DNA of 64,000 nucleotides from Escherichia coli (lineage in GTDB: Bacteria; Pseudomonadota; Gammaproteobacteria; Enterobacterales; Enterobacteriaceae). The translations under genes and the position numbers were made by a program. Shown in pieces: positions 16,332 through 57,010 of the stretch; the first letter of the stretch is position 1, and each line of letters starts with the position of its first letter. The stretch lies in the NCBI RefSeq assembly GCF_029227855.1, contig NZ_CP074356.1. One strand, given 5' to 3'. A model generated the notes under the pieces. The model was not told where the DNA came from and did not search any database. It worked only from the letters and a program-made list of their open reading frames with translations.

Positions 16332-16342
16332 TTAATAAATAT

Positions 16343-16367
16343 CCTCCGGCATAGCCGGAGGTTTTTC
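16343..16367 (+). terminator. Rho-independent terminator after ybdG (or subterminal hairpin of IS200)
   Basis: cctccggc-ata-gccggagg stem-loop followed by TTTTT. Confidence 0.6.
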
Positions 16368-16442
16368 AAATGCGCCTATAAGGCTCTCTTACCAGCCGCG
16401 CCCTAACAGGCGCACACGATCTGACATTTGCATCCAACTTCG

Positions 16443-16901
16443 TTACTTACGGCCCGTAAACGGGCTGCCCGGATAGGGAATCGATAACTGCTCTCCCATT
16501 TTATCCTCTTCAAGCTGGTGCTTTATGTAATCCTGTATCTTCGCCGTGTTCTTACCCACTGTATCGACGTAGTACCCTCTGCACCAGAACTCCCTGTTCC
16601 TGTATTTGAATTTCAAATCACCAAACTGCTCGTAAAGCATCAGACTGCTTTTCCCTTTCAGATATCCCATAAACCCGGATACGCTCATTTTGGGCGGGAT
16701 CTCCACAAGCATATGGATATGATCTGCACAGCATTCAGCTTCCAGAATCCGTACGCTTTTCCACTCACACAGCTTTCTCAAAATACTGCCTATTGCTCTA
16801 CGCTTCTCTCTGTAGAACACCTGTCTTCGGTATTTTGGCGCAAAAACTATGTGATATTTACAGTTCCATCGGGTGTGCGCTAAGCTCTTTTCGTTCCCCA
16901 T
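16443..16901 (-). CDS. tnpA: IS200 transposase TnpA (HUH Y1 transposase)
   Basis: Product MGNEKSLAHTRWNCKYHIVFAPKYRRQVFY...HIHMLVEIPPKMSVS...; HxH motif and catalytic Tyr context. Confidence 0.9.
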   Translation of the reverse strand: MGNEKSLAHTRWNCKYHIVFAPKYRRQVFYREKRRAIGSILRKLCEWKSVRILEAECCADHIHMLVEIPPKMSVSGFMGYLKGKSSLMLYEQFGDLKFKYRNREFWCRGYYVDTVGKNTAKIQDYIKHQLEEDKMGEQLSIPYPGSPFTGRK

Positions 16902-17043
16902 TGGGACCCCCTTTTGATTTCTTGTTTGACACTTGCAGTTGCCAGACCGCAAAGTGTTTTAACAAATCAAAAGGGGTTTTAATAACTGGCTCAAAGCTGA
17001 AAGCTTTCCGGAACCCCCAGCCTAGCTGGGGGTTTTCTGTGCA

Positions 17044-17078
17044 CAAAAAAACCGCTCTCATCGAATGGATGAGAGCGG
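17044..17078 (-). terminator. Rho-independent terminator of pheP
   Basis: ccgctctcatc-gaat-ggatgagagcgg hairpin, followed on the minus strand by TTTTTTT. Confidence 0.7.
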
Positions 17079-23314: not shown

Positions 23315-23337
23315 TTATTCTCTCCTGGAGTTAAAAA

Positions 23338-24720
23338 TTATTGCTGCCAACCGCCACCAAGTGCGGTATATAAAGAAATTTCGTTAACCTGACGGGCATA
23401 ATTCAGGTCAAGTAAAGTTTGTCGGGTTGCAAATAAAGAACGTTCGGCATCCAGCACTTCCAGATAACTGATTGCGCCGTGCTGATATAATGCCCGCGCC
23501 CGTTGCAAAGTAATTTGCAGCGATGCCAGATAACGCTGCTGGGCGCTAATTTGATCGTTCAGGCTTTGACGTAATGCCAGCGCATCTGCCACTTCTTTAA
23601 AGGCATTCTGGATTTTCTGTTCATAATTCACCACCGACTGCTGCTGGCGAATTTCGGCGATATCCAGATTGGCCTGGTTGCGTCCGGCATTAAAAATGGG
23701 GATCTCAATTTTGGGAATAAAATTCCACATCCCGCTGCTGGCGTTAAATAAGGACGACAGATCGCTGCTGGCGGTCGATATTCCGCTGGTCAGACTGATA
23801 GACGGGAAAAATGCCGCGCGTGCAGCGCCAATATTGGCATTAGCCGCCATCAACGCGTGTTCAGCTTCCATAATATCCGGGCGCTGCAATAAGATTTGCG
23901 ACGACAAGCCCGCCGGTAATTTAACGCTTTGCAGGCTGTCGCTGTTTACTGTTTGCGCTTGCGGCAGCTTGCCGTAGCTTCCCAGCAACAGTTGCAATGC
24001 ATTATTCGCCTGCGCCAGTTCCCCCTGACGTTTAGCGATGTCGCTGCGGGTACTTTCTATCACCCCGCGAGCCTGTTCCAGCGCCAGAACATTGCTGCTA
24101 CCGGTCAACAGTTGTTTTTCGACAAACGCATATGACTGCTGATAATTACGCAGCGTTTCTTCGGCTATTTGCAATTGCGCATACGCCAGTTGCTGATTGA
24201 AATAGCTTTGCGCGACATTAGAAACCAGCAGAATATGCACCGCGCGCTGGGCTTCCTCAGTGGCTAAATAATTTTGGCGCTCGGCTTCGCTCATGTTCTT
24301 TAAGCGACCGAAAAAATCGAGATCAAAGCTGGCGTTAAGGCCGGTCGAAAACTCCCGTGTCGTGGCGGTATTCCCTTTAAGATTACCGCTCCAGCTGCCG
24401 CTGCCCTCGCCATTGAGCTGTGGGTAGCGGTCGGCATCGGTCAGACGATATTGCGCCCGTGCCTCCTGCACTTTCAGCGTCGCCATGCGCAAATCCCGGT
24501 TATTCACCAGCGCCTCGCTAATCAGCGTCTTCACCTGATTATCAATAAAAAAGGTGCGCCAGCCCGCGTTCTGGTAGTTATCTGCTGCGTTAACCAGGCC
24601 GTTCTGGCTGAGTGAGAACTGCTTCGGTACGGGCATTGCCGGACGCTGATAATCCGGTGCCAATGAACAACCGGTTAGCGCAAGGGCCACACAAAATGGC
24701 AGAAGTTTACAAGGAGACAT
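23338..24720 (-). CDS. cusC: Outer membrane efflux channel CusC
   Basis: Product MSPCKLLPFCVALALTGCSLAPDYQRP... with lipoprotein signal; the ORF track begins two codons upstream at a GTG. Confidence 0.94.
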   Translation of the reverse strand: MSPCKLLPFCVALALTGCSLAPDYQRPAMPVPKQFSLSQNGLVNAADNYQNAGWRTFFIDNQVKTLISEALVNNRDLRMATLKVQEARAQYRLTDADRYPQLNGEGSGSWSGNLKGNTATTREFSTGLNASFDLDFFGRLKNMSEAERQNYLATEEAQRAVHILLVSNVAQSYFNQQLAYAQLQIAEETLRNYQQSYAFVEKQLLTGSSNVLALEQARGVIESTRSDIAKRQGELAQANNALQLLLGSYGKLPQAQTVNSDSLQSVKLPAGLSSQILLQRPDIMEAEHALMAANANIGAARAAFFPSISLTSGISTASSDLSSLFNASSGMWNFIPKIEIPIFNAGRNQANLDIAEIRQQQSVVNYEQKIQNAFKEVADALALRQSLNDQISAQQRYLASLQITLQRARALYQHGAISYLEVLDAERSLFATRQTLLDLNYARQVNEISLYTALGGGWQQ

Positions 24721-24789
24721 AGGCACATAATTTCTGGTGATTTTATGCCGCCAACTTTACCCGCCAGGCTCTGATTTTCCGGTGACAGG

Positions 24790-24811
24790 AAAATGACAAA
24801 ATTGTCATTTT
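24790..24811. promoter_or_regulatory. CusR box in the cusC-cusR divergent promoter region
   Basis: Palindrome AAAATGACAAAATTGTCATTTT, matching the remembered CusR operator (AAAATGACAAnnTTGTCATTTT). Confidence 0.8.
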
Positions 24812-24876
24812 ACCAATAAGCGATTGCCATCTGATCCCGCTACTCTAGAATTGCCCGGGCAACATGTGGAGGAAAT

Positions 24877-25560
24877 ATGAAACTGTTGATTGTCGAAGAT
24901 GAAAAGAAAACCGGAGAATACTTGACCAAAGGGTTAACCGAAGCCGGTTTTGTGGTCGATTTGGCCGACAACGGGCTGAATGGCTACCATCTGGCGATGA
25001 CCGGAGATTATGATCTGATAATCCTCGATATTATGCTGCCGGACGTGAACGGCTGGGATATCGTGCGCATGTTGCGTTCCGCCAATAAAGGGATGCCGAT
25101 TCTGTTGCTTACCGCGCTTGGTACCATTGAACATCGCGTCAAGGGGCTGGAGTTGGGGGCGGATGACTATCTGGTGAAGCCGTTCGCTTTTGCTGAACTG
25201 CTGGCGCGGGTGCGCACTCTACTGCGGCGCGGGGCGGCGGTAATTATCGAAAGTCAGTTTCAGGTTGCCGATCTGATGGTCGATCTCGTCAGCCGCAAAG
25301 TCACCCGCAGCGGCACGCGCATCACTCTGACCAGTAAAGAATTTACTCTGCTGGAGTTTTTCCTCCGCCATCAAGGCGAAGTGCTGCCCCGCTCGCTTAT
25401 CGCCTCGCAGGTGTGGGACATGAATTTCGACAGCGATACCAACGCCATTGATGTGGCAGTGAAGCGGCTGCGCGGCAAAATCGACAACGACTTTGAGCCG
25501 AAGCTGATTCAAACCGTGCGCGGCGTGGGTTACATGCTTGAGGTGCCGGATGGTCAGTAA
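24877..25560 (+). CDS. cusR: Copper-responsive response regulator CusR (OmpR family)
   Basis: 227-aa [28 protein letters not shown]... Confidence 0.96.
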
Positions 25561-27734: not shown

Positions 27735-29636
27735 ATGTCAACCGGATTACGTTTCACACTGGAAGTGGACGGCCTGCCGCCGGATGCTTTTGCGGTGGTT
27801 TCCTTTCATCTGAACCAGTCACTCTCTTCGCTCTTTTCCCTCGATCTCTCCCTGGTCAGCCAGCAGTTTCTCTCCCTTGAATTTGCGCAGGTGCTGGACA
27901 AAATGGCCTACCTGACGATATGGCAGGGCGATGAAGTACAGCGCCGGGTGAAAGGCGTGGTGACCTGGTTTGAACTCGGGGAGAACGACAAAAACCAGAT
28001 GCTGTACAGCATGAAGGTGCACCCGCCGCTGTGGCGTGCCGGTCTGCGCCAGAACTTCCGTATCTTCCAGAACGAGGACATCAAAAGCATCCTCGGCACG
28101 ATGTTGCAGGAAAACGGGGTGACCGAATGGAGTCCGCTGTTCAGCGAGCCGCATCCTTCCCGTGAGTTTTGTGTCCAGTACGGTGAGACTGATTACGATT
28201 TCCTGTGCCGGATGGCGGCGGAGGAAGGCATCTTCTTTTATGAGGAGCATGCTTACAAAAGTACCGACCAGAGCCTGGTGCTGTGCGACACAGTCCGCCA
28301 TCTGCCCGAATCTTTTGAAATCCCATGGAACCCGAACACCCGTACCGAGGTGAGCACCCTCTGCATCAGCCAGTTCCGCTACAGCGCACAAATCCGCCCT
28401 TCTTCCGTGGTGACCAAAGACTACACCTTTAAACGCCCCGGCTGGGCCGGACGTTTTGAACAGGAAGGCCAGCACCAGGACTACCAGCGCACGCAGTATG
28501 AAGTGTATGACTACCCCGGACGTTTCAAGGGTGCCCACGGGCAGAACTTTGCCCGCTGGCAGATGGACGGCTGGCGAAACAATGCAGAAACCGCGCGGGG
28601 AATGAGTCGCTCGCCGGAGATATGGCCGGGACGACGAATTGTGCTGACGGGGCATCCGCAGGCGAACCTGAACCGGGAATGGCAGGTGGTGGCAAGTGAA
28701 CTGCACGGCGAACAGCCACAGGCGGTGCCAGGACGGCAGGGAGCGGGGACGGCGCTGGAGAACCATTTTGCGGTGATCCCGGCAGACAGAACATGGCGAC
28801 CACAGCCGTTGCTGAAACCGCTGGTCGACGGCCCGCAGAGCGCTGTCGTGACAGGACCGGCAGGCGAGGAAATCTTCTGCGACGAACATGGTCGCGTGCG
28901 GGTGAAGTTCAACTGGGACCGCTATAACCCGTCAAACCAGGACAGTTCGTGCTGGATCCGTGTGGCACAGGCGTGGGCAGGCACCGGTTTTGGCCACCTG
29001 GCGATACCGCGTGTGGGTCAGGAGGTGATTGTAGACTTCCTCAACGGCGATCCGGACCAGCCGATCATTATGGGGCGCACCTACCACCAGGAAAACCGCA
29101 CCCCCGGCAGCCTGCCGGGAACAAAGACGCAGATGACCATCCGCTCCAAAACGTACATGGGCAGCGGATTTAATGAGCTGAAGTTTGATGATGCGACAGG
29201 GAGAGAACAGGTCTACATCCACGCGCAGAAGAACATGGATACCGAAGTGCTCAACGACCGTACCACCACCGTAAAACACGATCACCACGAAACCGTAAAA
29301 AATGACCAGACGGTCACGATCCAGGAAGGTAACCGCCTTCTTACGGTGGAAAAAGGCCACAAGATCACCGGAGTACTGAAAGGGTCTTTATCTGAGGATG
29401 TCTTTCAGGACAGAGGCACGATTGCCGGTTCGGTGCATGTTGACGCTGTAAACAATGGTGGCGAAGGCGACGGTATACAGGCTTATACGGCGATTAAGGA
29501 AATTTTGCTGGCCGTGGAGGAAAGCAAAATTGCGCTGACGCCGGATGGCATTCAGCTACAGGTCGGGGAATCGACGGTAATCAGGCTGTCGAAGGATGGC
29601 ATCACCATCGTGGGCGGTTCTGTTTTCATCAACTGA
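27735..29636 (+). CDS. vgrG: Type VI secretion spike protein VgrG (Rhs-element Vgr protein)
   Basis: 633-aa ORF MSTGLRFTLEVDGLPPDAFAVVSFHLNQSLSSLFSLDLSL...; gp27/gp5-like organisation, immediately upstream of Eag/PAAR-Rhs genes. Confidence 0.88.
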   Translation: MSTGLRFTLEVDGLPPDAFAVVSFHLNQSLSSLFSLDLSLVSQQFLSLEFAQVLDKMAYLTIWQGDEVQRRVKGVVTWFELGENDKNQMLYSMKVHPPLWRAGLRQNFRIFQNEDIKSILGTMLQENGVTEWSPLFSEPHPSREFCVQYGETDYDFLCRMAAEEGIFFYEEHAYKSTDQSLVLCDTVRHLPESFEIPWNPNTRTEVSTLCISQFRYSAQIRPSSVVTKDYTFKRPGWAGRFEQEGQHQDYQRTQYEVYDYPGRFKGAHGQNFARWQMDGWRNNAETARGMSRSPEIWPGRRIVLTGHPQANLNREWQVVASELHGEQPQAVPGRQGAGTALENHFAVIPADRTWRPQPLLKPLVDGPQSAVVTGPAGEEIFCDEHGRVRVKFNWDRYNPSNQDSSCWIRVAQAWAGTGFGHLAIPRVGQEVIVDFLNGDPDQPIIMGRTYHQENRTPGSLPGTKTQMTIRSKTYMGSGFNELKFDDATGREQVYIHAQKNMDTEVLNDRTTTVKHDHHETVKNDQTVTIQEGNRLLTVEKGHKITGVLKGSLSEDVFQDRGTIAGSVHVDAVNNGGEGDGIQAYTAIKEILLAVEESKIALTPDGIQLQVGESTVIRLSKDGITIVGGSVFIN

Positions 29637-29663
29637 TTCACTCAGATTATCAGGGAGTATTTT

Positions 29664-30125
29664 ATGCAGTTCACTTTTAATGAAGGCCACATTCAACTGC
29701 CGTCTCAATGGCAGGATCAGTCAATGCAGGTCCTGGTGTCCACAGATAACAGTGGCATCAACCTGGTCATTACCCGCGAAGCCGTTCCACAGGGAACCCT
29801 GACACCAGAGCTGTACCAGGAAACGCTGGCGCTGTACCAGGGCAAACTTGATGGGTACACCGAACATGCCTGCCGGGAAATCACTCTGGCAGAGGCCCCG
29901 GCCTGGCTGCTGGATTATTCCTGGAACGGTCCGGAAGATGAGGGGAATCAGGGGCGGATTAGCCAGATAGCCGTATTCCAGCGGCGTGGAGATACGCTGC
30001 TGACCTTCACTTTCAGCACCTCCTTATCCCTGAAGAACAGTCAAAAGACGATGCTGCTGGAGGTGATAAAGAGCTTCACCCCGTTGCCACCGGAGAATGA
30101 CATCCAAAAGGACCAGCCGCGCTGA
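29664..30125 (+). CDS. DUF1795/Eag-family T6SS effector chaperone (EagR-like)
   Basis: 153-aa ORF placed between vgrG and a prePAAR-Rhs gene, the canonical position of Eag chaperones; assignment from context and overall similarity, no HMM run. Confidence 0.7.
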   Translation: MQFTFNEGHIQLPSQWQDQSMQVLVSTDNSGINLVITREAVPQGTLTPELYQETLALYQGKLDGYTEHACREITLAEAPAWLLDYSWNGPEDEGNQGRISQIAVFQRRGDTLLTFTFSTSLSLKNSQKTMLLEVIKSFTPLPPENDIQKDQPR

Positions 30126-30144
30126 CATAAACGAGGGATAACAC

Positions 30145-33100
30145 ATGAGTGAAGGACCAGGCGGGCCACAGGGAGCGACCGCAGGCGGTACGCTGGCAAT
30201 GCGAATGCTGTCACAGCAGGCGATGGTCGCCAGCCAGATGAAACGGGCAGCCAACGACAAAGCCATTGCACAGATGCTGGCATCAAAAAAGTCCGGCCCC
30301 CCCGCCGCCAGGCTGGGCGATGAAATTCAGCACAAGAGTTTTTTGGGGGCGCTGGCAGGGGCCGTGCTGGGGGCGATAGTGACCATCGCAGAAGGTTGCC
30401 TGATTATGGCCGCCTGTGCCACCGGCCCTTATGCGCTGGTTCTGGTGCCTGCGCTGATGTATGCCAGCTATAAGGCGAGTGATTATGTGGAGGAGAAACA
30501 GAACCAGCTTGAATCATGGATAAACAGCTTTTGTGACACGGACGGCGCCATCAATACCGGTTCTGAAAATGTAAACATTAACGGAAAGCCCGCTGCCAGG
30601 GCCGCCGTCACCCTTCCCCCTCCTCCCCCACCTGGAGCAATACCTGAAATCCCACAGGGGGAACCCTCATGGGGTGATATTGCCACTGACCTGCTTGAAT
30701 CGGCAGCGGAAAAAGCAGTACCACTGGCGAAGGCCTGGGGGAACGCTGTTATCACCCTGACGGACAGCAATGCCGGTTTTATGGATCGCGTCAGCGCCGG
30801 CGCATCGCTTCTGTTTCCCGCCGGTCCGGTATTAATGGAGTTTGCCACCATGGTGGGCGGGCGTGGCGAAATCAAAAAAGATGTGGATTTCCCGGAAGCC
30901 GGTGAGGACACGGCGCTCTGCGACAAGGAGAACAAACCACCGAGGATAGCCCAGGGCAGCAGCAACGTCTTTATCAACAATCAGCCCGCCGCGCGCAAGG
31001 GCGACAAACTGGAGTGCAGCGCGGCAATCGTGGAAGGTTCGCCGGACGTCTTTATTGGCGGTGAACAGGTGACCTATCTGGATATCCAGCCAGAGTTCCC
31101 GCCGTGGCAGAGAATGATCCTGGGGGGAATAACGATAGCCAGCTATCTTCTGCCGCCAGCGGGACTGCTGGGAAAACTGAAGAATCTGGCGAGACTCGGC
31201 AAACTGGGGAACCTGCTGGGGAAAAGCGGGAAGCTGCTGGGGGCAAAGCTCGGCGCGTTGCTGGGAAAAACAGATAAGTCGTTAAAAAGTATTGCCAATA
31301 AAGTCATCAGATGGGTAACAGATCCTGTCGATCCGGTAACCGGCGCGTACTGCGACGAACGTACCGACTTTACGCTGGGCCAGACCCTCCCCCTCTCCTT
31401 CACCCGTTTCCACAGTTCTGTACTGCCGCTGCATGGCCTGACCGGCGTGGGCTGGAGCGACTCCTGGAGCGAATACGCCTGGGTGCGTGAACAGGGAAAC
31501 CGGGTGGATATCATCAGCCAGGGAGCCACGCTGAACTTCGCCTTCGACGGTGACAGTGATACGGCGGTTAACCCGTATCACGCCCAGTACATTCTGCGCC
31601 GCCGCGATGATTATCTGGAGCTGTTCGACAGGGATGCACTGAGCAGCCGCTTCTTTTATGACGCCTTTCCGGGAATGCGTCTGCGCCACCCGGTGACTGA
31701 CGATACCAGCGATGACCGCCTGGCACACAGCCCCAATGACCGGATGTACATGCTGGGCGGGATGAGCGACACCGCCAGCAACCGCATCACGTTTGAGCGC
31801 GACAGCCAGTACCGGATCACAGGTGTCAGTCACACCGACGGGATCCGGCTTAAACTGACGTACCACGCCAGCGGCTACCTGAAAGCCATTCACCGCACGG
31901 ATAACGGCATACAGACGCTGGCGACCTACGAACAGGATGCGCGGGGGCGGCTGACAGAAGCGGATGCGCGGCTGGACTACCACCTGTTTTATGAGTACGA
32001 CGCTGCGGACCGGATCATCCGCTGGTCCGATAACGACCAGACGTGGAGCCGTTTCACCTACGATGAACAGGGCCGGTGCGTGAATGTCACCGGGGCGGAG
32101 GGCTATTACAACGCCACGCTGGACTATGGTGACGGCTGCACCACCGTGACGGACGGCAAGGGCATTCACCGTTATTACTATGATCCTGACGGCAATATTC
32201 TGCGGGAAGCAGCGCCGGACGGCAGCACCACCACGTATGAATGGGATGAATTCCATCACCTGCTGGCCCGTCACTCCCCTGCCGGGCGGGTGGAGAAATT
32301 TGAATACAACGCCGCACACGGTCAGTTAAGCCGTTACACGGCGGCAGACGGCGCGGAGTGGCAGTACCGCTATGATGAGCGCGGCCTGCTCAGCAACATC
32401 ACCGACCCTGCCGGGCAGACGTGGACACAGCAGTGTGATGAACGCGGCCTGCCGGTAAGTCTGGTGTCGCCACAGGGCGAAGAGACCCGGCTGGCATACA
32501 CCGCTCAGGGGCTGCTGTCGGGAATATTCCGCCAGGATGAACGGCGTCTGGGCATAGAGTACGACCACCACAACCGGCCGGAAACACTCACCGACGTGAT
32601 GGGCCGTGAACACCACACCGAATACAGCGGTCACGACCTGCCGGTGAAGATGCGCGGCCCCGGCGGTCAGTCAGTGCGGTTGCAGTGGCAGCAGCACCAT
32701 AAACTGAGTGGCCTTGAGCGCACTGGCACCGGCGCGGAAGGGTTCAGCTATGACCGCCACGGCAACCTGCTGGCCTGGACGGACGGCAATGGTGTTGTCT
32801 GGACAATGGAGTACGGCCCGTTCGATTTGCCGGTGGCGCGAACGGACGGTGAAGGCCACCGCTGGCAGTACCGCTATGATAAAGACACGCTGCAACTGAC
32901 AGAAGTCATTAACCCGCAGGGTGAGTCATATCTTTATGTTCTGGATAACTGCGGCCGGGTGACGGAAGAGCATGACTGGGGCGGCGTGGTCTGGCGTTAC
33001 CGCTATGACGCCGATGGCCTGTGTACCGCCAGGGTCAACGGCCTGGAGGAAACCATCCTCTACAGCCGGGACGACGCAGGCCGCCTGGCAGAAGTCATCA

Positions 33101-34974
33101 CGCCGGAAGGCAAAACGCAGTATGCGTATGACAAATCCGGCAGGCTGACGGGTATCTTCAGCCCGGACGGCACATCACAGCGCACCGGCTATGACGAACG
33201 CGGGCGGGTGAATGTCACCACTCAGGGCCGACGGGCCATTGAATACCACTACCCCGATGAACACACCGTCATCCGCTGTATCCTGCCACCGGAAGATGAA
33301 CGCGACAGACACCCCGGTGAATCCCTGCTGAAAACCACGTACCGCTACAACGCAGCCGGAGAACTGGCAGAGGTCATCCTGCCGGAGGATGAGACGCTGA
33401 CGTTCAGCCGTGATGAGGCAGGACGTGAAGTGCTCCGGCACAGTAACCGGGGTTTTGCCTGTGAGCAGGGCTGGAATGCAGCCGGTCAGCTTACCAGCCA
33501 GCGCGCCGGACTTTTCCCGGCAGAAGCCACATGGGGCGGGCTGCTCCCCTCACTGGTACGGGAGTACCGTTACGACAGCGCGGGCAATGTGTCGGCTGTC
33601 ACCAGCCGGGAAGATTACGGACGGGAAACTCGCCGGGAGTACCGGCTGGACCGGAACGGCCAGGTCACGGCGGTGACAGCCTCAGGCACCGGGCTGGGCT
33701 ATGGCGAAGGCGATGAGTCCTATGGCTATGACAGTTGTGGCTACCTGAAGGCGCAGTCTGCGGGCAGGCACCGGATAAGTGAAGAGACTGAGCGGTATGC
33801 CGGAGGCCACCGGCTGAAACAGGCCGGAAACACGCAGTATGACTATGACGCCGCAGGCCGGATGGTCAGCCGCACCAGACACCGTAACGGCTATCGCCCG
33901 GAAACAGAGCGGTTCCGGTGGGACAGCCGGGACCAGCTGACCGGGTATTGCAGCGCACAGGGTGAACAGTGGGAATACCGCCACGACGCCAGCGGCAGAC
34001 GGACGGAAAAACGCTGCGACCGGAAGAAAATCCGCTTCACGTACCTGTGGGACGGCGACAGTATTGCGGAAATCCGGGAATACCGCGATGATAAACTGTA
34101 CAGCGTAAGGCACCTGGTGTTTAACGGCTTTGAGCTGATAAGCCAGCAGTTTAGCCGGGTACGGCAGCCGCACCCGTCCGTGGCCCCGCAGTGGGTGACG
34201 CGGACGAATCATGCGGTGAGCGATCTGACGGGCCGTCCGCTGATGCTCTTTAACAGTGAAGGTAAAACCGTCTGGCGACCGGGACAGACCAGCCTGTGGG
34301 GGCTGGCACTCAGCCTGCCCGCGGACACCGGCTACCCGGACCCGCGCGGGGAACTGGACGCGGAAGCCGACCCCGGCCTGCTGTATGCAGGACAGTGGCA
34401 GGATGCGGAATCCGGGCTGTGCTATAACCGGTTCCGGTATTACGAGCCGGAAACAGGGATGTACCTGGTGAGTGATCCGCTGGGGTTGCTGGGGGGTGAG
34501 CAGACTTACCGGTATGTGCCGAATCCGTGTGGGTATGTTGATCCTTTGGGATTAGCAACATGTCCCATAATCAGACAACGGGTGCTGGCTAACCTTGAAG
34601 CCAGTCGGGCAGCAAGGGCTGCATCTAATTTTGGTAAGAAAAATATCTATGATTTTATCAAGGCAACTCAATCTGCTATCCCTGGCACCTCTATCCCAAA
34701 ATCTTTTGAGATTATAACTGCTAATGGTACTTTCTGGGTACACCCAAATGCTACAAAACATATGGCTGAATATTTGACTCGGAACGGTCTCTCACATTCA
34801 ACTTCTGTAGAGAGCCAAATAATGTTAACAAGTTTTCACGAAGCTGTAAGTTTGGCTAGTGCTCAAGGTATAAAGTATGAAGAAATGATGAATGTTGGCG
34901 GCTGGGAACTAGTATTTAGTCAAGCTAAATCTGACTCGGCTTTATCAGTTATTAAACATGCTCTTTATAAATGA
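30145..34974 (+). CDS. prePAAR/PAAR-domain Rhs polymorphic toxin (T6SS effector) with variable C-terminal toxin domain
   Basis: 1609 aa; prePAAR motif AARLGDEIQH near the N-terminus with hydrophobic helices; PAAR-like segment (GDKLECSAAIVEGSPDVFIGGE); many YD/RHS repeats; PxxxxDPxGL core-end motif (NPCGYVDPLGL) followed by about 150 aa of divergent C-terminus. Confidence 0.9.
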   Translation: MSEGPGGPQGATAGGTLAMRMLSQQAMVASQMKRAANDKAIAQMLASKKSGPPAARLGDEIQHKSFLGALAGAVLGAIVTIAEGCLIMAACATGPYALVLVPALMYASYKASDYVEEKQNQLESWINSFCDTDGAINTGSENVNINGKPAARAAVTLPPPPPPGAIPEIPQGEPSWGDIATDLLESAAEKAVPLAKAWGNAVITLTDSNAGFMDRVSAGASLLFPAGPVLMEFATMVGGRGEIKKDVDFPEAGEDTALCDKENKPPRIAQGSSNVFINNQPAARKGDKLECSAAIVEGSPDVFIGGEQVTYLDIQPEFPPWQRMILGGITIASYLLPPAGLLGKLKNLARLGKLGNLLGKSGKLLGAKLGALLGKTDKSLKSIANKVIRWVTDPVDPVTGAYCDERTDFTLGQTLPLSFTRFHSSVLPLHGLTGVGWSDSWSEYAWVREQGNRVDIISQGATLNFAFDGDSDTAVNPYHAQYILRRRDDYLELFDRDALSSRFFYDAFPGMRLRHPVTDDTSDDRLAHSPNDRMYMLGGMSDTASNRITFERDSQYRITGVSHTDGIRLKLTYHASGYLKAIHRTDNGIQTLATYEQDARGRLTEADARLDYHLFYEYDAADRIIRWSDNDQTWSRFTYDEQGRCVNVTGAEGYYNATLDYGDGCTTVTDGKGIHRYYYDPDGNILREAAPDGSTTTYEWDEFHHLLARHSPAGRVEKFEYNAAHGQLSRYTAADGAEWQYRYDERGLLSNITDPAGQTWTQQCDERGLPVSLVSPQGEETRLAYTAQGLLSGIFRQDERRLGIEYDHHNRPETLTDVMGREHHTEYSGHDLPVKMRGPGGQSVRLQWQQHHKLSGLERTGTGAEGFSYDRHGNLLAWTDGNGVVWTMEYGPFDLPVARTDGEGHRWQYRYDKDTLQLTEVINPQGESYLYVLDNCGRVTEEHDWGGVVWRYRYDADGLCTARVNGLEETILYSRDDAGRLAEVITPEGKTQYAYDKSGRLTGIFSPDGTSQRTGYDERGRVNVTTQGRRAIEYHYPDEHTVIRCILPPEDERDRHPGESLLKTTYRYNAAGELAEVILPEDETLTFSRDEAGREVLRHSNRGFACEQGWNAAGQLTSQRAGLFPAEATWGGLLPSLVREYRYDSAGNVSAVTSREDYGRETRREYRLDRNGQVTAVTASGTGLGYGEGDESYGYDSCGYLKAQSAGRHRISEETERYAGGHRLKQAGNTQYDYDAAGRMVSRTRHRNGYRPETERFRWDSRDQLTGYCSAQGEQWEYRHDASGRRTEKRCDRKKIRFTYLWDGDSIAEIREYRDDKLYSVRHLVFNGFELISQQFSRVRQPHPSVAPQWVTRTNHAVSDLTGRPLMLFNSEGKTVWRPGQTSLWGLALSLPADTGYPDPRGELDAEADPGLLYAGQWQDAESGLCYNRFRYYEPETGMYLVSDPLGLLGGEQTYRYVPNPCGYVDPLGLATCPIIRQRVLANLEASRAARAASNFGKKNIYDFIKATQSAIPGTSIPKSFEIITANGTFWVHPNATKHMAEYLTRNGLSHSTSVESQIMLTSFHEAVSLASAQGIKYEEMMNVGGWELVFSQAKSDSALSVIKHALYK

Positions 34975-35504
34975 CGATTATGCTTACATTAGAAAATGAA
35001 ACAAACTACAAAGATGTTGTTGTTAATATAGATGAATTTGTACCTTTTGATATAACTTTTGGAAAGGGGAGCGAACAGTGTTTGTACTGGAGAGGCGGCA
35101 ATGGTAAAAGTTCTTTGGTTGAAGTTGGGTTAAATATGTACAGCGGAGAAGTAAGTAACATCACACTAGCAAATATCGATTCAGGTGAAATTAACATTAC
35201 AGATGAGATGTTAGCCAACAACCTTCCTGAAATACAAGGGTCTGTTATATTTCAGACAAGCGAGTGGCTTAATAAAGACATTTCCGAATACTCAAACAGA
35301 TTTATTGATGATTTTGATTGCAATATCAAGTTAATAATTGGTAGTAATTACATTAAATTATTATTTAAAAAAGCAACAAATCCCATTTGTTATATCATTA
35401 ATAGGAATATAAGATTTGGTTTTTCTTTGAGTAGGGAACTTTCGACATTGGAAATATTAGACCTCAATCAAGAAAAATTAGATATTCTAAAGTTATTTAA
35501 ATAG
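34971..35504 (+). CDS. Putative cognate immunity protein for the Rhs C-terminal toxin
   Basis: 177-aa ORF whose ATG overlaps the rhs stop (ATGA); markedly AT-rich; position typical of rhsI genes. Confidence 0.7.
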   Translation: MTIMLTLENETNYKDVVVNIDEFVPFDITFGKGSEQCLYWRGGNGKSSLVEVGLNMYSGEVSNITLANIDSGEINITDEMLANNLPEIQGSVIFQTSEWLNKDISEYSNRFIDDFDCNIKLIIGSNYIKLLFKKATNPICYIINRNIRFGFSLSRELSTLEILDLNQEKLDILKLFK

Positions 35505-35983
35505 TTTTAGTGTTTGAAACTTACCGAGAGATGATAGCTATGAATGAATACAAAAACATCCATCTTGGAGGAAACAATGGAATGTTAATCCATTAAAAAA
35601 CATACTTCAATATCTTTAGTGAAGAAAGAGTTGTATGAAAGAAATATATCTTATGTGAGCGACATGATGCATGCTAATTATATTATTGGCCGGAAATTTT
35701 ATGATGATAGCAAAAAGGAGGGGTTATTTCTGTAAGAATGGATATACCCGCAGGGTTTGAACCAGACATTTATTTGTTGAAGTCTAAGATCCAAATGGAA
35801 GCATTTATATCCCTCAGATATTATGCGTTGACGGGTTGATAAAGATACTTTTAGAGGGTTAATAAATGGAGAACGTATAATAAATCTCTTAAACAAACTA
35901 TAACCTGTACTAATGAAAAAAATGGGAATAGATAAGTTAATAGCCTATTCTAAAAATGGTAAAGTGGTTTTACTTCCAAAATA

Positions 35984-36427
35984 ATGGAGTTTAGTATGAA
36001 AATCGAAGCTAATTCCCTTACTCATCCCTATGACTACAACGCCTCACTGAACAATTATTTACATTATTTTGAGAATTTCTCTCGTAATGACTGGAATAAA
36101 GATTCATGTGGAGGATATTTTACTTTTAGAGATGATGACAGAGAGTGTGTTTTGTTTTTTGTGAATTATGGTGATAATTTTTCATTGCGCTATGATTGTA
36201 CACAAAGTTCTGATGGAATAGTGTCATGCTGGTATAGTAACCATGAAGATGATAAAATGAATATCATCGTCGATGCTGATACAGAACAATTTATCCCTTT
36301 AGGTTCTTGCTTACCTCCTGATATTACTTTATCAGTAATAAAAGATTTTTTCAAAAATCCTTTAGAGAAATCAAAAAAAGTAAAATGGATGAATGCAGAT
36401 GACATTGACTGGTCATCTGTGTATTAA
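35984..36427 (+). CDS. Hypothetical protein, possible orphan immunity gene
   Basis: 147-aa ORF in AT-rich DNA downstream of the toxin/immunity pair; no recognisable motif. Confidence 0.4.
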   Translation: MEFSMKIEANSLTHPYDYNASLNNYLHYFENFSRNDWNKDSCGGYFTFRDDDRECVLFFVNYGDNFSLRYDCTQSSDGIVSCWYSNHEDDKMNIIVDADTEQFIPLGSCLPPDITLSVIKDFFKNPLEKSKKVKWMNADDIDWSSVY

Positions 36428-37318
36428 AGTTGGATTGGATAATTATCTGTTTCAAAAATCATTAAATTTAGAACCTATCTGTTCAACAGAGCTGCCTTGA
36501 ACAGCAGGTTCTTTTATGATGTCCAGGAGCGAATATGCCTGTGATGTCTGGCACTCAGCATCTGACTGACCTGGACTACTGATCCTACTCACACAGGGAG
36601 CTAGACCTGGAAGCAACCTACTGTAAGCAGTGCAGTAGCAGCCCACCTCACATCAGTCCTTGCAAGGTGTGGGCCTTTGTGATCTTGCTCTGTATTGCTG
36701 AGATCCTCAGGAAGGACTCGAAATTTAATCAGGAAGGCCGTTGCTAAAAATCAAAAAATAAATTCAAGAGCAATTTCTAAAACTTTTGAATCTACTGTAT
36801 CGGATGAGGTTTTCACTCCTTTCCAAAAGGTGAGTTTTCAAGCATTCAAGTTTCTGTTATGACCAAAACTTCACCATTTAACACTAATCCGAGTATTATG
36901 TTACCATGAAGAAAAAAGATATTAGATTTGCAATATCCATTAACTCCAACTCAAGTAAGATAGAATTAATGGAAAAATTAAAAACATAATCCCAGGGCTT
37001 ATTGAAATAACTCCCAGTGCATTAAGAGAAGAAAAAACATGGTAGTTATTGAAGATAATGATCTTTATGACTCTATAAAAGCAGAGGGAGTTGATGGATG
37101 GATGTATTATAAATTCATATTATCCATATTCCCATTAAAGGGAGTAGACACAACATTAGAATATCAACGGAAATTATCTTTTCTTTTCTTAAAGAAATTA
37201 AAAGATGCGGGTCTGTTAGGTGAACTTATATGCGAGGATGATTTTCATGACTGATGACCTCTACATATATCCTCAGTTCGTGGCTGGTATTACATGATCT
37301 GACAGGGAAAGATCGTAG

Positions 37319-37613
37319 CGAAATCAAAAAAGACGTGGATTTCCCGGAAGCCGGTGAAGACACGGCGCTCTGCGACAAGGAGACTAAACCGCCGAGGATA
37401 GCCCAGGGCAGCAGCAACGTTTTTATCAACAATCAGCCTGCCGCACGCCAGGGAGACAAACTGGAGTGCAGTGCGGCGATCGTGGAAGGTTCGCCGGACG
37501 TCTTTATTGGGGGTGAGCAGGTCACCTATCTGGATATCCAGCCGGAGTTCCCGCCGTGGCAGAGAATGATCCTGGGGGGAATAACGATAGCCAGCTATCT
37601 TCTGCCGCCAGCG
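37319..37613 (+). pseudogene. Duplicated fragment of the Rhs PAAR-domain region
   Basis: 295 bp nearly identical to 30867-31161 of the full-length rhs gene; encodes EIKKDVDFPEAGEDTALCDK...ITIASYLLPPA inside ORF 37254..37631; lacks the N-terminus and core. Confidence 0.85.
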
Positions 37614-37750
37614 CAGGGAAAGATCACGTAACGCTGCTTTTTTGTACTAAATAATTCGCACTAAATGTTCAATAATTGAGATATTCCTTATTACCTAAAT
37701 ACAGTTCCACCAAGATTACCTAAACCCAAATGAGGTAAAAGATAGTGGGT

Positions 37751-38112
37751 ATGAATAAAAATGAAATCCATTTCCCTATAGGATATGGTTGGTTGAATGA
37801 AAAAAAATTATTGGCACCAGTGAATTTAGCCAATTAGAACCATGGTTTTATCTAGATGAGAACAGGTGTTTTTTTGCGAATAAAAAATGGCCAAATGTCA
37901 TAGGTGAACAATTATTCGCTTTTGCTAAACGTCAAGATAATGATGAATTGGCTTGTTTCAAAATTAATGAATCTGGAGTCTGTGAGGGTGTTTATTTAAT
38001 TAATGGGTGGACTCCTAACGGGTTTGATATTATACAATTTTACCCTGATTTTTGGGAATGGGTACATTTGGTTATACAAGATGTCTCGGAGTGGATTGAT
38101 AATAAAGGATAA
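37751..38112 (+). pseudogene. Frameshifted small gene (immunity-protein-like) with an A8 tract at the frame switch
   Basis: ATG at 37751 reads 27 codons to a stop; a shifted frame from about 37813 continues for 99 codons to TAA at 38110-38112; the shift coincides with gaaaaaaaatt at 37798-37808. Confidence 0.45.
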
Positions 38113-38141
38113 TTTGAAACAAAAGTAAAAAACCGCCTTCA

Positions 38142-38840
38142 TTGAAGGTAACGTGGAGTGGTGGGCGGAGCAGCCTGCCCGCAGACACAGACTACCCGGA
38201 CCCGCGCGGGGAGCGGGACGCGGAAGCCGACCCCGGCCTGCTGTATGCAGGACAGTGGCAGGATGCGGAATCCGGACTGTGCTATAACCGGTTCCGGTAT
38301 TACGAGCCGGAAACCGGGATGTACCTGGTGAGTGATCCCCTGGGGTTGCTGGGGGGTGAGCAGACTTACCGGTATGTGCCTAATCCTAGTGGGTATGTTG
38401 ATCCTCTGGGATTAGCAACGTGTCCTATACTCAGACAGTGGGCGCTGACTAACCTTGAAGCCAGTCGGGCAGCAAGGGCTGCATCTAATTTTGGTAAGCC
38501 TCTGGTCCAGCGAAATAAAACGATTGGCGATAAAGTAAGGGATATGATTGCCAAAGAGAGGGGAACCACTCTAATTGAACAAAATTATAGAGTGACAGGA
38601 GGATTAAAGCGTATTGACGTTGTTGATGGAGTAACGGGTATAGAATCTAAAGTCGATCGAACAGGGTTAACAACCCGAGTACGGCAAGAGGTAGCGCGGG
38701 ATATTAAGATTTTGAGAAGTGAGCAACTTGATCAAATTGAATGGGTGTTTACAAGAAGTTCAACTACAGGGAAGATTGGGCCAACTAAACCACTTGAAGA
38801 TCTTTTAAATAAACATGGTATACCGATTATTTATCGATAA
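38142..38840 (+). CDS. Orphan Rhs C-terminal fragment: core end (DPxGL) plus alternative C-terminal toxin domain, candidate PD-(D/E)xK nuclease
   Basis: 38171-38498 nearly identical to 34311-34638 of the full rhs; the C-terminal domain diverges after ...AASNFGK; contains RIDVVDG...GIESK; the ORF begins at TTG and has no PAAR or core of its own. Confidence 0.7.
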   Translation: MKVTWSGGRSSLPADTDYPDPRGERDAEADPGLLYAGQWQDAESGLCYNRFRYYEPETGMYLVSDPLGLLGGEQTYRYVPNPSGYVDPLGLATCPILRQWALTNLEASRAARAASNFGKPLVQRNKTIGDKVRDMIAKERGTTLIEQNYRVTGGLKRIDVVDGVTGIESKVDRTGLTTRVRQEVARDIKILRSEQLDQIEWVFTRSSTTGKIGPTKPLEDLLNKHGIPIIYR

Positions 38841-38851
38841 GGAGTGATAGT

Positions 38852-39409
38852 GTGAAACTCAAACCGATTGGTGACTTTTTAAACAAAAATGGGTTTATAA
38901 AAAATGGTAACAATGATTTTTATAAAGTTCATGATAAGTTTGTAAATTGTATAAATTTTCAAAAAAAGAGTACAGGTGATATTTTTTTTATAAACACAGG
39001 TGTTCATCCTGTGTTCGAAAATTTTTGCAATGAACCACCGAAAAAAGAAATAGATTGTTACATCCGTAACCGTGTGTGTGATGGACTAAGTATATCTTTG
39101 CTGCATTCTTTTGAAGGTAGTGAGTTTGTTATCAGTGAGATAAAAAACAAAGCGTTTTGTTTTTTTGAATACTTTGATTCATTGAATAAAATATTCGATG
39201 CTATTCGTGTTGTAGATATTGAAGAGAGAAATATTTGCGATGAGCTAAGTGGTGTAAGCAGCGTAAGATTAGCTTTGATGTGTATGAACTACCAGTATGA
39301 GAAAAAAAAATTTAGCCTTGTTTCTGATTTTGCGAACTATGGTCTTGCTATATCTAGAGGCCCGGTACCGAAAAAAGCATTTAAGGATATGATAAAAATA
39401 ACAGAGTGA
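38852..39409 (+). CDS. Putative immunity protein for the orphan Rhs C-terminal toxin
   Basis: 185-aa AT-rich ORF with GTG start 11 bp after the orphan toxin stop and GGAG upstream. Confidence 0.6.
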   Translation: MKLKPIGDFLNKNGFIKNGNNDFYKVHDKFVNCINFQKKSTGDIFFINTGVHPVFENFCNEPPKKEIDCYIRNRVCDGLSISLLHSFEGSEFVISEIKNKAFCFFEYFDSLNKIFDAIRVVDIEERNICDELSGVSSVRLALMCMNYQYEKKKFSLVSDFANYGLAISRGPVPKKAFKDMIKITE

Positions 39410-39434
39410 TACCTAATCCGGTGTAATACTTGCT

Positions 39435-39646
39435 GCCTGTGTACCGCGAAGATTAACGGCCGGGAGGAAACTATTCTCTACAACCGGGACGCCACAGGCC
39501 GCCTGGCAGAAGTCATCACGCCGGAAGGCAAAACGCAGTATGCGTATGACAAATCCGGCAGGCTGACGGGTATCTTCAGCCCGGACGACACATCACAGCG
39601 CACCGGCTATGAAGAACGCGGGCGGGTGAATGTCACCACTCAGGGC
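39435..39646 (+). pseudogene. Internal Rhs core fragment
   Basis: About 210 bp at roughly 90% identity to 33018-33228 of the full-length rhs; truncated at both ends, abutting the ISAs1 left end. Confidence 0.8.
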
Positions 39647-40936
39647 AGGGAAAGATCATCCAAAGTACACTTTTTGTACTAAATAATTCGCATTTTATGT
39701 TTAAAAATGGAGATATTCCTCATTACCTAAAGCTGTTTTTTATTGCTTATACATGATCAAATACTCCTTACATAATTAAGGAGAACAAAATGGAACTTAA
39801 AAAATTGATGGAACATATTTCTATTATCCCCGATTACAGACAAGCCTGGAAAGTGGAACATAAATTATCGGATATTCTGCTGTTGACTATTTGTGCCGTT
39901 ATTTCGGGTGCAGAAGGCTGGGAAGATATAGAGGATTTTGGGGAAACACATCTCGATTTTTTGAAGCAATATGGTGATTTTGATAATGGTATTCCTGTTC
40001 ACGATACCATCGCCAGAGTTATATCCTGTATCAGTCCTTCAAAATTTCACGAGTGTTTTATTAACTGGATGCGAGATTGCCATACTTCAGATGATAAAGA
40101 CGTCATCGCAATTGATGGAAAAACACTCCGGCATTCTTATGACAAGAGTCGCCGCAAGGGAGCGATTCATGTCATTAGTGCGTTCTCAACAATGCACAGT
40201 CTGGTCATCGGACAGATCAGGACGGATGAGAAATCCAATGAAATTACAGCTATCCCTGAACTTCTTAACATGCTGGATATTAAAGGAAAAATCATCACAA
40301 CTGATGCGATGGGTTGCCAGAAAGATATTGCAGAGAAGATACAAAAACAGGGCGGTGATTATTTATTCGCTGTAAAAGGAAACCAGGGGCGGCTAAATAA
40401 AGCCTTCGAGGAAAAATTTCCGCTGAAAGAATTAAATAATCCAGAGCATGACAGTTACGCCATTAGTGAAAAGAGTCACGGCAGAGAAGAAATCCGTCTT
40501 CATATTGTTTGCGATGTCCCTGATGAACTTATTGATTTCACGTTTGAATGGAAAGGACTGAAGAAATTATGCGTGGCAGTCTCTTTTCGGTCAATAATAG
40601 CAGAACAAAAGAAAGAGCCAGAAATGACGGTCAGATATTATATCAGTTCTGCTGATTTAACCGCAGAGAAGTTCGCCACAGCAATCCGAAACCACTGGCG
40701 CGTGGAGAATAAGCTGCACTGGCGTCTGGACGTGGTAATGAATGAAGACGACTGCAAAATAAGAAGAGGAAACGCCGCAGAATTATTTTCAGGGATACGG
40801 CACATCGCTATTAATATTTTAACGAATGATAAGGTATTCAAGGCAGGGTTAAGACGTAAGATGCGAAAAGCAGCCATGGACAGAAACTATCTCGCGTCAG
40901 TCCTTGCGGGGAGCGGGCTTTCGTAATCTTGCCCTG
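39646..40936 (+). mobile_element. ISAs1-family insertion sequence (H-repeat element), about 1.29 kb
   Basis: Imperfect terminal inverted repeats CAGGGAAAGATCA (39646-39658) and TAATCTTGCCCTG (40924-40936); single transposase ORF; inserted in rhs-derived sequence. Confidence 0.75.
39790..40926 (+). CDS. ISAs1-family transposase (H-repeat-associated protein, YhhI/YdcC-like)
   Basis: 378-aa [55 protein letters not shown]...; the stop codon lies inside the right inverted repeat. Confidence 0.88.
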
Positions 40937-41123
40937 CGTTAACCGCCCCTCCTTGACACCACGCTTTTGTCTACATTCTACACAAACGGCAACTTTTATA
41001 ACCAGTGTAAAAATAACGTGCCGCAATAGTCATACCTATTAATGGTAAAAAGCTGTCACAATTCATAAAAAACCTTAATATACGCCACCCTAAACATAAC
41101 CAGCGTTAATGTAAGGTTTTTGT

Positions 41124-56975: not shown

Positions 56976-57010
56976 CCGGATGCGAAAACTCGCATCCGGC
57001 AATAGCGCAA

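Follow-up and report, generated by a model that had tools for sequence, protein, structure and literature searches.

The divergent cusCFBA and cusRS operons of this Escherichia coli strain are separated by a short spacer that carries an inverted repeat. This arrangement raises the question of whether the repeat is the operator of the response regulator CusR, and of what its presence reveals about the copper/silver efflux locus. We addressed this question within a window of 64 kb, by which we mean the whole stretch of DNA that was analysed.

The corresponding locus of K-12 provides the frame of reference. A CusR box, AAAATGACAAnnTTGTCATTTT, lies between cusRS and cusC(F)BA, as given in the part of PMC11195947 that quotes Yamamoto & Ishihama 2005. 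In K-12, ChIP-chip yielded a single CusR peak, located in the cusR-cusC spacer (bioRxiv 10.1101/2020.08.17.251918), and in gSELEX unphosphorylated CusR had one target, again this spacer (PMC8249747). In the accepted model, CusR~P activates both PcusC and PcusR from the box (PMC10920338, PMC12589874), and reporter work has addressed copper/silver-dependent activation in K-12 (PMC12589874). The same box is also recognised by HprR (PMC8249747, PMC9302797).

The inverted repeat matches the CusR box

Upon recounting the window, we found the 22-mer AAAATGACAAAATTGTCATTTT exactly where the initial annotation had placed it (Table 1). Its left arm, AAAATGACAA (24790-24799), and right arm, TTGTCATTTT (24802-24811), are 100% complementary. 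The earlier description of a perfect 22-bp palindrome thus holds for the 10-nt arms; it fails for the full 22 bp, because the central AA (24800-24801) is not self-complementary, and the reverse strand of the box matches with 2 mismatches. The published consensus, with its unspecified 'nn' centre, has the same form as the AA-spaced box found here. The box was also said to be centred between the divergent operons, and its position agrees: the cusC ATG (minus strand) is at 24720 and the cusR ATG (plus strand) is at 24877, which places the box in the divergent cusCFBA/cusRS spacer (24721-24876; 156 bp, the same length as in K-12), with its centre 2 bp from the spacer midpoint at 24798.5. The left boundary of this region had been set at 24727, next to the GTG start (24726) of the longest open reading frame; it shifts to the annotated ATG of cusC.

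Table 1. Positions of the operator, promoter and gene features in the window.
Feature	Position	Strand	Remarks
CusR box	24790-24811	.	10-2-10 inverted repeat, centre 24800.5
16-bp core ATGACA-AAAT-TGTCAT	24793-24808	.	6-4-6 inverted repeat, copper-box type
Third half-site GTGACA	24782-24787	-	cusC-sense TGTCAC; predicted -40 to -35 of cusC promoter
Pho-box-like direct repeat TGTCATTTTCCTGTCACC	24781-24798	-	left arm + third half-site
ATCAG (aaCAg in 7 loci)	24771-24775	-	column conservation, 7 box-anchored loci
Candidate cusC -10 TAAAGT	24754-24759	-	predicted start ~24747, box centre -53.5
Candidate cusR promoter	24824-24851	+	-35 TTGCCA 24824-24829, 16-nt spacer, -10 TAGAAT 24846-24851; consensus scan 10/12
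cusR, response regulator, 227 aa	24877-25560	+	227/227 K-12; NF007346 equivalog 507.9 bits, cut-off 420
cusS, sensor histidine kinase, 482 aa	25550-26998	+	NF007345 985.5 bits, cut-off 423
cusC, outer-membrane channel, 460 aa	23338-24720	-	454/460 columns K-12; NF007347 901.7 bits, cut-off 598
cusF, periplasmic metallochaperone, 110 aa	22982-23314	-	109/110 K-12; NF007348 205.8 bits, cut-off 143
cusB, membrane fusion protein, 407 aa	21743-22966	-	403/407 K-12; NF007303 860.8 bits, cut-off 390
cusA, RND permease, 1047 aa	18588-21731	-	1042/1047 K-12; TIGR00914 1669.9 bits, cut-off 701
Type VI secretion VgrG	27735-29636		island
DcrB-domain protein	29664-30125		island
PAAR/RHS-repeat protein, 1609 aa	30145-34974		island; followed by small ORFs
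ISAs1-family (ISEc1-like) transposase gene	39790-40926		island
IS200-like Y1 transposase ORF	16443-16952	-	Pfam PF01797, E=5e-38

The identification as the known CusR box was likewise borne out: the 22-mer matches AAAATGACAAnnTTGTCATTTT at 20/20 specified positions and is identical to the K-12 site at 22/22. Over the 201 bp compared with K-12 MG1655, we found 5 differences and none in the box. Two of these, G for A at 24789 and A for G at 24812, directly abut the box; the other three are further SNPs. Within the box, the 16-bp core fits the copper-box consensus ATKACANNNNTGTMAT of CopR/PcoR/AgrR-type OmpR-family regulators. Judged by its sequence and its setting, the element is almost certainly the CusR box, at which CusR, a response regulator of the OmpR/PhoB family, acts; the box is a textbook operator that has already been characterised. 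Because both the site and CusR, including its DNA-binding domain, are identical in sequence to those of K-12, we infer, and consider it very safe to do so, that the K-12 function applies to the present strain as well.

We also considered that the repeat might be a chance AT-rich palindrome, or a cruciform or hairpin terminator, that has no regulatory protein partner. The sequence is indeed AT-rich, short palindromes are common, and the 16-nt specified core occurs in many unrelated genomes. However, a shuffled window is expected to hold only 0.01 matches to the 22-mer when up to 3 mismatches are allowed, and the box itself is the only such match in the 64-kb window. The window contains 4 perfect inverted repeats whose arms span 10 nt or more and whose spacer is 0-4 nt long, versus 0.41 in shuffles. 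For the 16-bp core pattern, again with up to 3 mismatches, we found 6 matches versus 3.3 expected; the five matches other than the box all have 3 mismatches and thus fit chance. The 10-bp stem could not form a normal hairpin, because a 2-nt loop is too short. An RNA hairpin or terminator was rejected: no terminator-like site was found, and the box lies upstream of both predicted transcription starts. Furthermore, as described below, the box is invariant in E. coli alleles and recurs in sil and in remote cusR loci with constant spacing to the promoters. A partnerless palindrome is already refuted by the conservation across species and by the binding data in the literature; we assign it a negligible probability.

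In the complete genome of this strain, a second site covered by the pattern ATKACAANNTTGTMAT would be expected at hprR-hiuH. Separately, the first codons of cusC contain AAAATGGCAGAA (24693-24704), which resembles the left arm of the box at 10/12 positions, lies 97 bp away and pairs with the right arm at 8/9 positions. This likeness to the box arms is probably due to chance within coding sequence.

The cus locus is intact

Gene names were assigned from the RefSeq annotation of strains with 100% identical DNA, together with NCBIfam scores above the curated cut-offs (Table 1). CusS aligned with K-12 CusS (480 aa) with 467 identities over 482 columns and lacked an internal stop. The initial annotation had concluded from the box that the copper/silver efflux regulon is intact. 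For the cus locus this conclusion is correct, because the six open reading frames are full length, without internal stops and close to K-12; as an inference from the box alone it does not stand. The window does not extend to the other CusR/HprR target, hiuH-msrPQ/hprRS.

A second strain illustrates the distinction. In E. coli O19:H7 strain 730V1 (locus L134, ~1476-2444), a copy of IS903B separates the CusR box from cusC, having inserted at ~24767 in the coordinates of the window, and an additional IS5-like element (ISKpn26 family) truncates cusC. In this strain the box is present and the efflux operon is disrupted; the box alone is thus no proof of an intact regulon.

The 3' end of cusC exists in two forms. 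K-12 CusC has 457 aa and ends in ...GGG, 3 residues shorter at the C terminus, and is followed by a 157-bp cusC-cusF spacer (locus L002, 10975-11131). Here, CusC has 460 aa and ends in ...GGGWQQ, and the cusC-cusF spacer is 23 bp (23315-23337). Strain CFSAN018748 shares both the 460-aa CusC and the 23-bp spacer, so that the K-12 form appears to stem from an insertion at the cusC 3' end.

Conservation of the box within E. coli and in related loci

Of 5426 complete E. coli genomes, 5333 carry the spacer region, nearly all of them with an identity of at least 95%. The allele carried by the window is a minority one, reaching at least 99% identity in 133 of the 5333 genomes. We aligned seven alleles spread over the identity range, and found that the 22-mer and the adjacent GTGACA (the third half-site, discussed below) are invariant in 7/7 sampled alleles, despite SNPs directly flanking the box. 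The SNPs among these alleles are at 24726, in a cluster at 24747-24750, and at 24762, 24789, 24812 and 24868; at 24789 (G/A), G is present in 4/7. The cluster at 24747-24750 (TGCC, TGTC, TGCT, TGAC, TACC) coincides exactly with the predicted cusC transcription start.

A paralogous locus, sil, is carried on plasmids. In pECL_A, one of the sil/pco plasmids, SilR shares 87% identity with CusR, and the silC-silR spacer holds TAATGACAATGTTGTCATTTTT. The SilR box shares the 16-bp core and the third half-site (GGTGACAGGATAATGACAATGTTGTCATTTTT), and its spacing is as in cus, both to TAAAGT towards silC and to TTGATA-16-TAGAAT towards silR. It differs in the central dinucleotide, which is TG rather than AA, and in its outer A-tract, which is imperfect (TAATG...). 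pECL_A also carries a second copper box, ATGACAAAGATGTCAT (locus L005, 20164-20179), between silS and silE and upstream of silE, which fits control of silE by SilR/CusR, as reported for pcoE (PMC11195947).

A cross-species pattern scan with AATGACAANNTTGTCATT, using one genome per species, returned at least 120 loci, which form a control set rather than a census. Among the matches listed, none came from Escherichia, 6 were cusR-linked and 114 were not beside a cusR homologue. In the 6 cusR-linked loci the box lies 67-91 bp upstream of the cusR homologue (58-89% identity), and a divergent cusC homologue is present within the compared DNA at 4/6. The core occupies the same position in sil and in all 6 of these loci and is exact there, save for the two central bases of the 4-nt spacer. 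Since the 16-nt specified core also occurs in unrelated loci, it is not diagnostic of CusR by itself, and context is needed.

Many of the other matches listed represent a palindrome of Collinsella, typically CGAAATGACAACGTTGTCATTTCG (L006 11062-11079, L010-L017 and others). At L006, the one such locus examined, it lies between genes for a LacI-family regulator and PTS EIIC/IIB; with its central CG, it fits a cre/LacI-type operator pattern unrelated to CusR. A LacI-family operator was rejected for the present box, whose spacer is AA rather than CG and whose neighbours are cusC and cusR.

A third half-site is conserved on the cusC side

We found that the left arm of the box is repeated directly 11 bp (one helical turn) nearer cusC (Table 1). 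At the offset of this third half-site, the pentamer TGACA is present with 0-1 mismatch on the cusC side in 6/6 cusR-linked loci; on the cusR side of the same 6 loci, there are 2-4 mismatches to TGACA. As a control, we evaluated 85 unrelated palindrome contexts: 2/170 sides had at most 1 mismatch, and 0 were exact. The third half-site is also found in sil, in E. coli hprR-hiuH, and in Ralstonia and Cupriavidus homologues.

The hprR-hiuH locus of E. coli, which is outside the window, carries the CusR/HprR box CATTACAAAATTGTAATG (PMC9302797). Like the cus box, it is an inverted repeat of 7-2-7 layout placed between a regulator operon and the target operon that diverges from it, and a third half-site lies in phase on the side of the target operon (CTTACA-5-ATTACAA). 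Its half-site is TTACA, compared with TGACA in cus, and it is reported to be a lower-affinity HprR site (PMC8249747). The same layout is known from the AgrR box of Cupriavidus metallidurans (consensus ATKACANNNNTGTMAT), where the regulator and the organism differ from those of the CusR box: a direct repeat lying in phase plays a part in binding and activation, AgrR has been suggested to be a type II activator at most promoters investigated, and its active form is the unphosphorylated protein (PMC7380067). The extension by a third half-site is therefore not new, since both the AgrR layout and the PhoB site of K-12, described below, have already been published. Our literature search brought up no study that directly tests whether the third half-site contributes to activation by CusR in E. 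coli.

A further motif, ATCAG, follows the third half-site 11 bp downstream and would occupy positions -28 to -24. It may be a degenerate fourth in-phase repeat.

Predicted promoter geometry differs between the two operons

Because our search of the literature found no published transcription starts for cusC or cusR, the start positions used here are predictions from consensus and conservation. The initial annotation had suggested promoter prediction on both strands. On the plus strand, prediction yielded a sigma-70 match of 10/12 for cusR; on the minus strand, none was above threshold.

For cusC, the evidence comes from spacing: a TAnnnT hexamer is found exactly 22 nt downstream of the third half-site in 7/7 box-anchored loci, corresponding to the candidate -10 of Table 1. 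The third half-site falls next to the poor -35 of this predicted promoter. No sigma-70-like -35/-10 pair on the cusC strand reached the threshold of the consensus scan, a result that fits activator dependence. The predicted position of the box agrees with RegulonDB, which places the CusR site at -53.5 of cusCp.

For cusR, the predicted start is ~24858, with the box centre at about -57.5. The arrangement core-15 nt-TTGnnA-16 nt-TAnAAT is present in 5/7 loci, including sil, two Lelliottia-type loci and Denitrificimonas. The conserved spacing suggests two different modes of action. On the cusC side, with the box at about -53.5, the layout would be class II-like and activator-dependent; on the cusR side, with the box at about -57.5 upstream of a good sigma-70 promoter, it would be class I-like with basal expression.

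PhoB as a probable additional input

The left arm and the third half-site together form TGTCATTTTCCTGTCACC, in which we found two direct TGTCA-type repeats with the 11-bp periodicity of a Pho box. In K-12, a PhoB ChIP-seq site, TGTCATTTTTCTGTCACC, has been assigned at cusR/cusC and reported as conserved, and cusC was activated more than 2-fold by PhoB (PMC10294691). An earlier study that used ChIP-chip and EMSA also reported PhoB binding here (PMC3465305). TGTCATTTTCCTGTCACC is identical to TGTCATTTTTCTGTCACC at 17/18 positions, and the sole difference is the 24789 G/A SNP in the spacer between the repeats. This Pho box occupies the same DNA as the left arm and the third half-site and excludes the right arm; its regulator and its signal differ from those of the CusR box.

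These findings raise the alternative that the element is mainly a PhoB operator with an incidental palindrome, such that PhoB~P, bound to TGTCAT-5-TGTCAC, activates cusC in phosphate starvation. The 17/18 identity to an assigned site, the PhoB-dependent activation and the agreement of the earlier study all speak for this alternative. However, the right arm lies outside the direct repeat and yet is equally invariant, and copper induction is CusR-dependent in the literature. The ChIP enrichment at this site, 3, is also low compared with phoA (20) and phoE/proB (14) (PMC10294691).

The position of the repeat may also speak against a PhoB operator. The 18-mer ends 22 nt from the candidate -10, a distance that depends on the predicted start position. 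A canonical Pho box lies about 10 nt upstream of the -10 hexamer. The degenerate ATCAG, one turn further downstream, would fill this canonical position. We consider it very unlikely that the element serves chiefly PhoB; binding of this regulator is more readily understood as an input added to the CusR box than as a rival to it.

Other features of the window

Two further perfect inverted repeats with 10-nt arms are present in the window: AAAAAACAAAGCGTTTTGTTTTTT at 39142-39165, and CCGGATGCGAAAACTCGCATCCGG at 56976-56999, which looks REP- or terminator-like.

An island of ~13 kb (27735-40937) lies between cusS and nfrB; in K-12, nfrB ends ~150 bp from the end of cusS. Table 1 gives the genes of the island. 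The segment 34553-39646, which comprises the toxin C terminus and the open reading frames that follow, has no match in CFSAN018748, otherwise the closest strain examined, which fits a swapped toxin tip and immunity module.

Between ybdG and pheP, there is an insertion of ~700 bp (16339-17045) that is absent from CFSAN018748 and contains the IS200-like open reading frame of Table 1. Near one end of this insertion is the perfect inverted repeat AACCCCCAGCCTAGCTGGGGGTT (17012-17034), probably an IS200 end hairpin.

Discussion

Our results place a CusR box that is identical to that of K-12 between intact cusCFBA and cusRS operons. As is established in K-12, whose site is identical, Cu(I)/Ag(I) in the periplasm would lead CusS to phosphorylate CusR, and a dimer of CusR~P would then bind the inverted repeat. 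From this single site both divergent promoters would be switched on, resulting in expression of the cusCFBA efflux pump and in positive autoregulation of cusRS. HprR, which responds to peroxide/HOCl, and PhoB, which responds to phosphate starvation, have been reported in the literature on the same DNA. Because these two regulators also bind the DNA of the box, the site may act as a small integration node.

We propose, tentatively and at somewhat less than even probability, that the cusC operator is a conserved in-phase array, composed of the inverted pair at -61 to -46, the direct repeat at -40 to -35 and possibly the degenerate repeat at -29 to -24. In such an array, the promoter-proximal repeat would let CusR~P, PhoB and HprR act in a class II-type manner, and the common G/A SNP at 24789, which falls in the spacer between repeats, might tune the balance of the three inputs.

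The strain carries a standard, intact chromosomal copper/silver efflux locus with a normal control region. This result can be used to check the annotation and offers a reference point for endogenous silver/copper resistance, which in the literature involves cusS mutations that act through the CusR box. Within about 30 bp, the control region would receive copper signals from CusRS, oxidant signals from HprRS and phosphate signals from PhoBR, all of them two-component systems, and the third half-site, which is conserved, gives an easily tested way into the question of how these three inputs may be combined.
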